64,000 nucleotides of DNA from positions 4,030,001 to 4,094,000 of the forward strand of contig OZ024748.1 in assembly GCA_964016885.1 (NCBI GenBank), given 5' to 3'. Shown here in pieces: positions 1,625 through 61,924 of this stretch (position 1 is the stretch's first letter; every line of letters begins with the position of its first letter). The notes below the pieces were generated by a model. That model was not told the DNA's origin and made no database searches. It saw only the letters and a list, made by a program, of their open reading frames with translations. The position numbers were made by a program, and so were the translations under genes. Source of the DNA: Eledone cirrhosa (Eukaryota).

Positions 1625-1628
<4 letters not shown>

Positions 1629-1819
1629 AAAAAGTATGACCCCGACGGCAGAGCTCAAGCCGTTGCGACGGTTATTTCTAGTCCAGAAATAGCCGTCGAA
1701 ACGGCTTGAGCTCTGCCGTGGGGGTCATACTTTTTCCTATTTCCCACTCTGCTACCCTAAGTATGGAGTACTCTGGTGCGTTATGGTCCATCTGGTTCCT
1801 TACCACAATTCCTTTGTTA
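1625..1819 (+). mobile_element. Family A fold-back element (hairpin plus unique tail) in (TA)n
   Basis: Inverted repeat 1625-1740 (TAGGAAAAAGTATGACCCCGACGGCAGAGCTCAAGCCGTT...AACGGCTTGAGCTCTGCCGTGGGGGTCATACTTTTTCCTA), then tail ...CCCACTCTGCTACCCTAAGTATGGAGTACT...GGTTCCTTACCACAATTCCTTTGTTA(TA)n. About 11 copies in the window. Confidence 0.85.
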
Positions 1820-1823
1820 TATA

Positions 1824-8881: not shown

Positions 8882-8954
<73 letters not shown>

Positions 8955-8958
<4 letters not shown>

Positions 8959-9089
8959 AAAGGAAATGTGGTAAGGAACCAGAAGTACCAGAGCACTCAA
9001 TACTTAGAGTAGTAGAGTGGGAAATAGGAAATTATACATTTCTGTCGAAACGGCTTGAGCTCTGCCGTCGGGTCATACTTTTTCCTATA
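8955..9089 (-). mobile_element. Family A element, internally deleted copy
   Basis: AAGGAAATGTGGTAAGGAACCAG...ACTCAATACTTAGAGTAGTAGAGTGGG tail plus one arm GTCGAAACGGCTTGAGCTCTGCCGTCGGGTCATACTTTTTCCTA; TA-flanked. Confidence 0.8.
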
Positions 9090-14699: not shown

Positions 14700-15285
<586 letters not shown>

Positions 15286-16941: not shown

Positions 16942-16947
<6 letters not shown>

Positions 16948-17137
16948 AAAGTGGGGACCCCGACGGCTGAGCTATTGCCATTTCAACAGCTAGTTTAAGT
17001 CAGGAACTAGGTATTGAAACGGCAAGAGCTCAGCCGCCGGGTTCCTGACACTTTATAATATAACCATACTGTACTACCCTAAGTATGGATTGGTCTTTTA
17101 AGTATTGGTCTAACCAGTTTCAAGCTAAACCCATCCT

Positions 17138-17140
<3 letters not shown>
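16942..17140 (+). mobile_element. Family A-related divergent fold-back element
   Basis: GACCCCGACGGCTGAGCT...GAAACGGCAAGAGCTCAGCCG hairpin and TACTACCCTAAGTA tail motif; TA-flanked. Confidence 0.7.
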
Positions 17141-17683: not shown

Positions 17684-17760
<77 letters not shown>

Positions 17761-17762
<2 letters not shown>

Positions 17763-17956
17763 ACGAAGGAAATGTGGTAAGGAACCAGGTGAACCATAAC
17801 GCACCAAAGTACTCAATACTTAGGGTAGTAGAGTGGGTAATAGGAACAAGTAAGACCCCGACGGCTGAGCTCAAGCCGTTTCGACGGCTAATTCGGGTCC
17901 AGAATTAGCCGTCGAAACGGCTTGAGCTCAGCCGTCGAGGTCTTACTTGTTCCTAT
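17761..17956 (-). mobile_element. Family A fold-back element, full form
   Basis: Tail 17761-17839, hairpin 17840-17956; TA-flanked. Confidence 0.9.
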
Positions 17957-18575
17957 CTATATATATATATATATATGTGCATTATGTGTGTATGTATATG
18001 TGTATGTATGTATTTATAAACGCATTATGGACACTAAATTGTGAAATAAGAGACAGGCCAACTCTCGGAACTTGAAGTATACATCTATCGTCTGCCAGGT
18101 GACCGACGACATCATTGACTATATCAACGTTGAGACTTCCGTGTTTTATGAGGCACGACCTTGTGTTAGAACAGGACTATCACTCCGCCTACACCTGACA
18201 ATCAAAATAATGAGACATGTCCGACAAGGGGACTTCAGTAAATAATGTAAGAAGGAGAGAGAAAAAAAACGGTGTCTTAGCAAAACAAACAACCAGCGGA
18301 AATCATTTCCTGTGCCTCAATGAATGGTTTAGCAAGATTTAATAGAATAGAAATATAGTTTGCTTAAACAGATAGTTCCACACTCACTTAAATATACGTA
18401 CATATATACACATGTATACACGCACATATACATACATACATGCATATATATTAACGACAGAGATAGATAGATAGGTAGATATATAGGTAGGTAGATAGGT
18501 AGGTAGGTAGATAGATAAATAGATAGGTATATATGTATGTATGCGATACAACGCATCTATCTATCTATCTCTCTC

Positions 18576-32357: not shown

Positions 32358-32422
32358 AATCCTTTGTGTAGTTGAGTGCGTGTGTATGTGTGTTTATTTA
32401 TGTGTGTATATATATATATATA

Positions 32423-32503
32423 TAACGAAGGAGTTGTGGTAAGGAACCAGATGGACCGTCGAAACGGCTTGAGCTCTGCCGTCGGGGTCATACTTTCTCC
32501 TAT
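32423..32503 (-). mobile_element. Family A element, deletion form
   Basis: TAACGAAGGAGTTGTGGTAAGGAACCAGATGGACC joined to GTCGAAACGGCTTGAGCTCTGCCGTCGGGGTCATAC. Confidence 0.85.
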
Positions 32504-37978: not shown

Positions 37979-38020
<42 letters not shown>

Positions 38021-38023
<3 letters not shown>

Positions 38024-38205
38024 CGAAGGAAATGTGGTAAGGAACCAGGTGGACCATAACGCACCAAAGTACTCAATACTTGAGGTAGTAGAGTGGGTAA
38101 TAGGAACCAGTAAGACCCCGACAGCTGAGCTCAAGCCGTTTCGACGGCTAATTCTGAATTAGCCGTCGAAACGGCTTGAGCTCAGCTGTCGGGGTCTTAC
38201 TGGTT

Positions 38206-38210
<5 letters not shown>
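38021..38210 (-). mobile_element. Family A fold-back element, full form
   Basis: Tail 38021-38099, essentially perfect hairpin 38100-38210; TA-flanked. Confidence 0.9.
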
Positions 38211-40650: not shown

Positions 40651-40733
<83 letters not shown>

Positions 40734-40736
<3 letters not shown>

Positions 40737-40822
40737 CGAAGGAAATGTGGTAAGGAACCAGATGGACCATAACGCACCAAAGTACTCAATACTTAGGGTA
40801 GTAGAGTGGGGTCCTACTCGTT

Positions 40823-40827
<5 letters not shown>
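40734..40827 (-). mobile_element. Family A element with hairpin deleted
   Basis: Full tail joined at GGG to the terminal GTCCTACTCGTTCCTA. Confidence 0.8.
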
Positions 40828-51558: not shown

Positions 51559-51819
51559 TTATAAAGATTCGGGGCCCGACGGCTGAGTTCTTGCCGTTTA
51601 AACAACTAGTTCCAGACTGGAACTAACTGTTGAAATGAAAAGAGCTCAGCCGACGAGTCCCGATTCTTTTTAATATAACCATACTCTACTATCTCAAGTA
51701 TCGAGTACTCTGTTGAGTAATGGCCTGAATTGGGGAGTATAACCCAACGAAACTTAAGTACCTATACATGGTCTGAGTGCTCGTACCCTTGGATATTTCT
51801 AGCAAACTTATACTACAGT
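51559..51819 (+). mobile_element. Family A-related divergent fold-back element
   Basis: GGCCCGACGGCTGAGTTCTTGCCGTTT..AGTTCCAGACTGGAACT..GAGCTCAGCCGAC hairpin; TACTCTACTATCTCAAGTATCGAGTACT motif; TA-flanked. Confidence 0.7.
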
Positions 51820-52505: not shown

Positions 52506-52571
52506 TATCGCATGCCCATATATGGAATTACCTCTTGAAAAGTTCAGTTATTTATTACCACGCTAAAAGTC

Positions 52572-52626
52572 TAATTTTGTCCCGAAATAGCCGTGGAAAG
52601 GGCTTGAGCTCTGAACTTTTTCCTAT
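52572..52626. mobile_element. Family A arm fragment
   Basis: GTCCCGAAATAGCCGTGGAAAGGGCTTGAGCTCTG..CTTTTTCCTA. Confidence 0.6.
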
Positions 52627-54485: not shown

Positions 54486-54529
<44 letters not shown>

Positions 54530-54532
<3 letters not shown>

Positions 54533-54725
54533 CGAAGGAATTGTGGTAAGGAACCAGATGGACCATAACGTACCAAAGTACTCAATACTTAGGGTAGTAG
54601 AGTGGGTAATAGGAACAAGTATGACCCCGACGGCAGAGCTCAAGCCGCTTCGACGGCTATTTCTGGACCAGAAATAACCGTCGAAACGGCTTGAGCTCTG
54701 CCGTCGGAGTCATACTTGTTCCTAT
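54530..54725 (-). mobile_element. Family A fold-back element, full form
   Basis: Tail 54530-54608, hairpin 54609-54725; TA-flanked. Confidence 0.9.
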
Positions 54726-61650: not shown

Positions 61651-61685
<35 letters not shown>

Positions 61686-61689
<4 letters not shown>

Positions 61690-61880
61690 AAAAGAGTCAG
61701 GACCCCGACGGCTGAGCTCCGGCCGTTTCGACAGACAGCTAGATTCCGATCTAGCTGTCGAAACGGCCGGAGCTCAGCCGTCGGGGTCCTGACTCTTTAC
61801 CTATTACCCACTCTACTACCCTAAGTATCGAGTACTCTGGTGTATTATGGTCCACCTGGTTCCTTACCACACTTACTTCG

Positions 61881-61883
<3 letters not shown>
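61686..61883 (+). mobile_element. Family A fold-back element, full form
   Basis: Hairpin 61686-61804, tail to TTCGTTA(TA)n. Confidence 0.9.

Positions 61884-61924
<41 letters not shown>

Follow-up and report, generated by a model that had tools for sequence, protein, structure and literature searches.

A head-to-head insertion and its relatives in the window

The window, that is the whole 64,000-nt stretch of DNA analysed here, comes from Eledone cirrhosa (GCA_964016885.1, contig OZ024748.1, 4,030,001 to 4,094,000, forward strand). At 17761..17956 it contains an insertion of 196 nt into a (TA)n target, which encloses it on the left (17684..17760, start approximate) and on the right (17957..17976, approximate). 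The insertion consists of a 79-nt unique segment and a 117-nt palindrome; an earlier note had pointed to this palindrome, and a fold z of -20.9 confirmed it. It is made of two leader copies of a Penelope-like element (PLE) placed head to head, and is one of tens of thousands of such stumps. The tail-bearing arm (17761..17894, minus strand) runs from +7, counted from the inferred RNA start, to the far end site at +140, and includes the 79-nt tail that lies between the two end sites (17761..17839, minus strand). In full-length tandem copies this tail continues into the ORF, with the start codon at +232 in the copy L237. Two untemplated nucleotides (17895..17896) form the junction and the symmetry axis. 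The tail-less arm (17897..17956, plus strand) extends from +2 to the near end site, +61, with 1 mismatch to the other arm over 55 nt.

Both arms carry the 3' half of a hammerhead ribozyme, composed of GAAA, stem III with its GAGCTC loop, GTC and GGGG. It is intact in the tail-bearing arm (17856..17882, minus strand, C17 at 17860), whereas in the other arm (17914..17940, plus strand, C17 at 17936) its stem I strand differs by a single G>A. The motif GAAA-CGGC-nn-GAGCTC-n-GCCG-TC-GGGG, proposed earlier as the family signature, was found 15 times in the window with at most 3 mismatches, and 0 times in 100 shuffles. A complete hammerhead core is present on neither strand of the 196-nt copy, the 5' half being missing, and its RNA is predicted to form one long hairpin.

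The family is represented in the window by eleven clusters. Sister hairpins were found at 1625..1821 (tail arm on the plus strand), 38019..38210 (subfamily variants common to both arms), 54528..54725 and 61685..61885 (GGCCGG subfamily), and hairpins of an older, diverged subfamily at 16942..17140 (right end approximate) and 51559..51723 (right end not defined). An alteration of GTC had been reported for the copies at 1625, 16942 and 51559; it is there, but in one arm of each, the other arm retaining GTC. The description of these insertions as stereotyped hairpins of about 195 bp holds for the typical length but not for every copy. The arms are short and non-overlapping at 8953..9088; at 32421..32503 a 38-nt tail arm is joined to a tail-less arm; and at 40732..40827 a tail arm meets a 20-nt tail-less arm which begins at or next to the ribozyme cut site, its exact start being ambiguous owing to a G microhomology there. 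A last copy, at about 52506..52626 (plus strand), is tail-less, non-palindromic and decayed, with stem III and stem I deleted in part, and includes the 5' half of the ribozyme, with a TTGAAAA core.

In 580 kb of unselected genome, 19 clusters were counted (about 33 per Mb), which extrapolates to roughly 10^5 copies in the 3.0-Gb assembly, where simple repeats are abundant. Exact matching gave lower bounds of at least 16,521 short hairpins and at least 30,426 tail ends. Both flanks of family insertions are (TA)n; a target-site duplication was sought, and such flanks would mask any.

Some copies are adjacent or form short tandem arrays with TA spacers (L187 217-663; L225/L226; G000:C3:187250086-187250332; G000:C12:24548298-24548445), and in L042, L053 and L054 a chimeric junction near the centre joins a family arm to the end of another repeat that bears a hammerhead. 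The window also holds a separate repeat family, whose minimal hammerhead is canonical (CTGATGA...GAAA), at 14855 (+), 16366 (-), 58240 (-) and 58416 (+). The last two are paired head to head within (TA)n, with a one-sided tail, and the one at 14855 sits in an arm of a palindrome centred near 14770. More CTGANGA motifs at 175 (+), 51912 (+), 47286 (+), 14186 (+)/14252 (-), 31749 (-) and 58727 (+), several of them in a hairpin-like context, are probably the ends of other PLE families.

The parent element and its ribozyme

Non-palindromic parents were reached by extending the longest arm sequence, after a search for CTGANGA. The parent is a full-length Hydra-type PLE inserting into (TA)n. A full-length copy of the same subfamily group as the window copy, L244, reads in order (TA)n, an inverted tail-less pLTR, a pLTR with the ribozyme, the tail leading into the ORF, reverse transcriptase and endonuclease domains, the 3' UTR, a second pLTR, the tail and (TA)n; its pLTR and tail are 93-95% identical to the window copy. 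The partial tandem pLTRs, inverted 5' copy and one-sided tail of endonuclease-bearing (EN+) PLEs are thus all present in L244. Another full-length copy, L237, is a direct tandem terminating at the near site. Long parents were present for all three subfamily groups checked. Taking the A of TTAGT in loop II as +1, GAAA lies at +19, C17 at +41, the near end at +61, the far end at +140 and the start codon at +232.

ORF fragments of L231, L232, L237 and L244 align end to end with homologues of 717-759 aa which match RVT_1 and GIY-YIG; the decayed fragments themselves gave no Pfam or PDB match above the cut-off. RWR (a conservative variant of RWK) and DKT are present in L244 and L237; a CxCx5C linker, together with CxxC and CxH around conserved E and N, is found in L244, and the linker also in L232. 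The features given for the Hydra clade are RWK, DKG changed to DKT, the CxCx5C linker, CxxC/CxH, the lack of a CCHH motif and insertion into (TA)n (PMC8557442), the last of which is seen in the family copies. The sole named top homologue is from a bivalve. ORF pieces of other PLEs lie beside the parents (L237 5930-7441 (+), L245, L247, L244 1-786, L246 3302-3976), and, by eye, L231 (-) contains an ORF resembling that of a DNA transposase, and L233 an RTE-like ORF in two copies.

Other identities were considered for the family. Readings as a Helentron, a parvovirus-like terminal hairpin or an HDV-like ribozyme were abandoned when the coding parent came to light. A MITE or other non-autonomous DNA transposon was rejected, as the palindrome is off-centre, one end is a unique tail and each arm is also found alone, and so was a non-LTR retrozyme, the copies being single, without the 5' core and matching the end of a coding element.

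The parent fits the fold of a type I hammerhead, with the 3' half as in the window, in agreement with the assignment made in the earlier note. It reads CCCC-TTGAAAA-G, the 5' strand of stem II, a loop some 38 nt long and finally the window-type half, and this 5' half has 804 exact genomic matches over 21 nt. The unfolded parent foreseen in the note, with a stem I complementary to GGGG, therefore does exist, with stem I being CCCC/GGGG, but the predicted CCCC-CTGANGA does not describe it: CTGANGA had 55 genomic matches, which look like chance or chimeric junctions with no consistent stem II by eye, and was found in none of the 92 captured parent segments (3 false captures included). The core in these segments was TTGAAAA in 58, TTGAAGA in 11, TTGAGAA in 7, CTGAGAA in 4, CTGAAAA in 3 and others in 9, position 7 being freely variable. 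The parent core hence departs from the canonical C3-U-G-A-N-G8-A, and U3-A8 is a described core variant of PLE hammerheads (PMC4209133).

The parent has the three-helix junction of stems I, II and III, with G10.1-C11.1 and A15.1-U16.1. In 50 of the 92 segments, which we picked for their spread, 91% of 1291 cells are paired under the hammerhead structure, as against 29-52% when it is slid. Stems I, II and III are paired in 94.5, 91.8 and 96.4% of cells of the parent segments. Covariation is thin: two-sided changes occur in only 4 pairs, a number reached in 175 of 500 shuffles. The hammerhead was the minimum-energy fold in only 1 of the 4 parents folded. Rfam returned no hammerhead in the best 150 of 759 matches for the window, nor among the 5 matches for the parent region. 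In loop II a second hairpin segment may form (84% of cells paired).

In the window copy, the inverted copy does occupy the position of the ribozyme 5' half, as had been claimed, although what it stands in for is a core other than CTGANGA. Similarly, the symmetry axis was placed correctly within the loop II region, on its 3' side, but the hairpin that closes it is distinct from the stem II of the parent, which is built with a separate 5' strand and encloses a loop region of about 38 nt.

Ends of the arms

The arms have two fixed 3' ends, +61 (near) and +140 (far), and a hairpin generally uses one of each. Exactly one tail was present in 101 of 102 hairpins and two tails in none; 39 of these hairpins were selected by their tail and 56 came from other targeted searches, and the 7 unselected ones all obey the rule. 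A short pair with both arms tailed (L218/L219), whose arms end before the ribozyme motif, falls outside the count of 102.

Arm lengths do not follow a fixed order. Of 46 short hairpins, 22 had the longer arm on the tail side and 17 on the tail-less side, and 7 had equal arms, without rank correlation between the two lengths (rho 0.11, p 0.47); the centre loop was of 0-2 nt in 15 of the 46. The 37 long inverted pairs gave 24 with opposite arm types and clean junctions, of which 9 had a tail-less arm longer by more than 25 nt, 7 a longer tail arm and 8 near-equal arms, and among long pairs the tail-less arm could exceed the tail arm by up to 1.1 kb. The two arms of a copy are nonetheless closely related in sequence. 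They differ by a median of 1 nt, versus 5 between copies, and a diagnostic 13-mer was identical between arms in 69 of 102 hairpins and clearly mixed in 2. The class of the base at -1 is likewise correlated between arms (both non-T in 10, one in 7, both T in 29 of 46; chi2 18.4; hand count among the matches listed, 100 of 7,566). That the arms share subfamily and -1 class fits a single RNA template. The centres of L296, L202 and L045 contain short templated copies of arm sequence, as in polymerase-theta end-joining.

At their other end, the arms stop in a narrow region. Among 161 arms, drawn from loci that were unselected or anchored on the tail, the end lies no more than 25 nt upstream of GAAA in 144, at 31 nt in 1 and beyond 60 nt in 16; most ends are 12-19 nt upstream of GAAA, where 18 corresponds to +1. 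The depth of contigs inside the leader, in four DNA-like runs of one study, is about 15-40-fold that just upstream of the axis and more than 100-fold that past the tail end, values which are not to be read as copy number and do not bear on transcription starts or expression. The ends range from +7 to -5, so that there is no single-base boundary.

At (TA)n junctions, 85 distinct loci were scored for the base preceding +1 (AGTCC), which was G at 49 of them, C at 21 and A at 15, counted by hand among the matches listed (100 of 599) after removal of 15 overlapping duplicates, T being excluded by the pattern. A control site 4 nt further on gave 7 G, 38 A and 10 T over 55 loci (among the matches listed, 100 of 290; 23 duplicates and 22 variant rows removed). 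This enrichment in G is significant (Fisher p = 2e-10, set up as G against A plus C and G against A). Genome-wide, TATATG followed by AGTCCAG occurs 158 times, versus 1 for TATATG followed by CAGAA at the control site. In the parent, the base at -1 is T in 84, C in 3 and G in 0 of 87 cases, and the G is thus untemplated. Blunt junctions were more numerous than the 158 with G, 469 at +1 and 131 at +2. In hairpins where both arms reach +1, the templated T at -1 was present in 66 of 100 arms among the matches listed (100 of 7,566), and many arms run 2-5 nt further. The same mark was sought at the A at -4, as a second start, and no more than about 4 of 78 cases had G. Some centres hold stretches of 7-13 A/T absent from the parent (C1:43259605, 44860430 and 55270256); these look like bases added reiteratively, or without a template, by a telomerase-related reverse transcriptase on reaching the end of its template.

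Thirty loci bearing the extra G were classified by arm type: 19 were tail-less (two of them duplicates) and 11 tailed (one of them a hairpin with a TA centre). Since both types are found, +61 and +140 each appear to prime independently, and solo copies of both arm types share one 5' boundary. The site around the A of TTAGT is similar to a Pol II initiator. The start would then be a Pol II start at this A, the extra G being the copied cap, and the point where the arms meet likely marks a capped RNA start inside the element's own ribozyme; start, cap and cleavage are all read here from DNA junctions. For LINE-1 and SVA, an untemplated G is accepted as the sign that a cap has been copied (PMC4859970), and PLE start sites within the pLTR are documented (PMC2377424, PMC8557442).

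A second accumulation of junctions is seen at the ribozyme cut site. Of 79 distinct loci with a junction nearby, 53 start at +42, the first base after GTC, and the others at +40 (7), +41 (4), +43 (5), +44 (7) or elsewhere (3); the count was made by hand among the matches listed (100 of 125), with 11 overlapping and 10 tandem duplicates removed. Two upstream comparison windows yielded 44 and 63 rows, the 63 clustering at a TT microhomology. A fifth G at the boundary was present in 5 of the 53. Some of the T-GGGG junctions could be CpG-decayed starts at +40 or +41, and undecayed starts of this kind are few (11). The peak at +42 suggests that the ribozyme cleaves in vivo and that cleaved RNA may serve as template, and would be compatible alike with cleavage in cis or in trans, the latter being the alternative that the earlier note had offered for the half-ribozyme. 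Uncleaved RNA appears to be the main template, because most copies span the cut site.

Origin of the stumps

These observations are best read as two separately primed cDNAs placed head to head, rather than a single one snapped back at stem II. We consider it probable that the stumps arose when the element's enzyme cut (TA)n and used both DNA ends to prime cDNA on a single capped sense mRNA. The PLE enzyme would cut both strands of a (TA)n tract; one cDNA would start at the near site (+61) and the other at the far site (+140), on the same RNA molecule, and both would run to its 5' end. The cDNA ends would then be joined by end-joining with small losses or inserts, from a maximum of 61+140 = 201 nt to the typical length of about 195 nt. 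The U3-A8 ribozyme would cut in vivo, and as the mRNA would start inside the ribozyme, the leader would hold its 3' half only. Internal priming in the leader would yield dead-end stumps far more often than full-length copies. Cutting and extension of both strands by a PLE protein, with two internal start sites bracketing the tail, have been reported (PMC11167929), and the cap-like G on both arm types argues for a sense, capped template primed twice.

A further elaboration is more speculative, and we regard it as possible though rather doubtful. The capped leader would act as the substrate half of the ribozyme, to be completed by the 5' half that the same transcript carries in its downstream pLTR; the RNA would be cut at both ends and could circularise at unit length, and a dimer of reverse transcriptase would prime on one RNA from both DNA ends, at the two fixed sites.

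The earlier note had proposed that cDNA reaching stem II primes on itself, and self-priming, on an antisense template, has been proposed for PLE palindromes (PMC3846280). Applied to the present family, a tail-primed cDNA would reach the template end in loop II, fold and copy itself up to the TA-like +61 site. The one-tail rule and the common haplotype of the arms both follow from such a scheme, and the near-equal arms of 8 of the 24 clean long pairs are in its favour. We nevertheless disfavour it and hold it to be improbable. In 17 of 46 short pairs and 9 of 24 long ones it is the tail-less arm that extends further, by up to 1.1 kb; loops are of 0-2 nt in 15 of 46; some copies have an untemplated G on both arms with a 1-nt centre; and solo tail-less copies, some G-bearing, make +61 a priming end in itself. 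Later central deletions could blur the asymmetry of the arms, and without them the folding back of a single cDNA explains neither the solo arms nor the asymmetry and the tiny loops.

Two other explanations are less probable still. The 195-bp hairpin might be a non-autonomous element propagating itself, copied as a unit from earlier hairpins, as its very high copy number (at least 16,521 exact short hairpins), the young subfamilies with few long copies (12 matches) and the recurrence of some centres would suggest. This seems to us quite unlikely, for centres are highly varied, the commonest centre has the tail on either side, the subfamily groups checked have their long parents, and stumps lack the sequence past +140 that is needed by the PLE template in vitro (PMC11167929, for another clade). 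We give equally little credit to a boundary set by a stop of the reverse transcriptase, or by a nuclease cut, in a structured stem II region, with the G reflecting a terminal-transferase habit. The possible second hairpin segment in loop II (84% of cells paired), the spread of arm ends from +7 to -5 and the extra A/T runs at centres all speak for it; against it, the G is specific to +1 (158 versus 1) and seldom accompanies the boundary at the cut site (5 of 53), and start sites of PLEs in the pLTR are on record (PMC2377424, PMC8557442).

Much of the framework into which the putative twice-primed leader copies fit is already published, namely the clade, the inverted pLTR with its tail, the two start sites and the U3-A8 core. 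The family resembles the Hydra clade of C-terminal EN+ PLEs, including Hydra-1_Obim (Craig et al. 2021, PMC8557442), in RW(K/R), DKT, CxCx5C, CxxC and CxH, in its single ORF of about 700 aa, its (TA)n target and its pLTR hammerhead. Its likeness to Hydra-1_Obim was judged by eye. It is another family, with U3-A8 in place of the canonical core listed for Hydra-1_Obim; its unit is of 3.2-3.5 kb, its tail measures 79 nt as compared with 30-40 in the clade, and its ribozyme motif was absent from the supplement of that paper. With other EN+ PLE insertions (PMC3846280, PMC8557442) it shares the head-to-head 5'-truncated copy, the one-sided tail and the palindrome at the junction, but most Eledone copies are cut down to a leader of about 200 nt with a fixed junction, and the occurrence of the G in arms of either type speaks for a sense, capped template primed twice, whereas the proposal in PMC3846280 is antisense self-priming. 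PLE hammerheads of the U3-A8 type (Cervera and de la Pena 2014, PMC4209133) have in common with the predicted one U3-A8 for C3-G8, G10.1-C11.1 and a palindromic loop III; with 5 bp in stem III and a stem II that is long and interrupted, the Eledone hammerhead departs from the minimal motifs that depend on dimers.

Anolis Poseidon, studied in vitro (Frangieh et al. 2024, PMC11167929), likewise has two internal start sites bracketing the tail at the pLTR-ORF junction, cutting and extension of both DNA strands, and an AT-rich target. In the accessible text of that study, no RNA reads end at the ribozyme cut and 5' junctions are not treated, whereas the genomic junctions of Eledone pile up at the cut and at the putative start. 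In twin priming of LINE-1 (PMC4859970, PMC11702581), both DNA ends also prime on RNA and an untemplated G marks the capped 5' end, but the inverted segment abuts the first cDNA, while the Eledone cDNAs overlap almost wholly and both extend to the 5' end. A cap mark at PLE junctions, a start within the ribozyme and a junction peak at its cut site were not found in the open literature, Repbase and Dfam being outside this scope; related elements may figure in the supplements of bioRxiv 10.64898/2026.07.22.740005.

Taken as a whole, the feature is real and of a known insertion type, with unusually clean evidence, at the level of sequence, on what its mechanism may be. In the accessible parts of PMC3846280, PMC8557442 and PMC11167929, the origin of the inverted pLTR and one-sided tail, the template strand and cutting in vivo are open questions, for which the Eledone family offers base-level predictions: a capped start at +1, a cut at +41/+42, and priming at +61 and +140, one for each end. 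An RNA start within the ribozyme would account for the odd inverted ends of the PLE class. The family also explains a very abundant palindromic repeat open to being mistaken for a MITE. If the more speculative scheme, with RNA cut at both ends and primed by a dimer of reverse transcriptase, is true, the roughly 10^5 stumps would amount to a fossil 5' RACE library of the cap, of both priming sites and of ribozyme cuts in vivo. They would also be a large source of perfect hairpins of about 58 bp for RNA editing; hyper-editing in octopus has been linked to near-perfect dsRNA (PMC5625713), and by analogy the stump hairpins are candidate editing substrates in an octopus-like genome.
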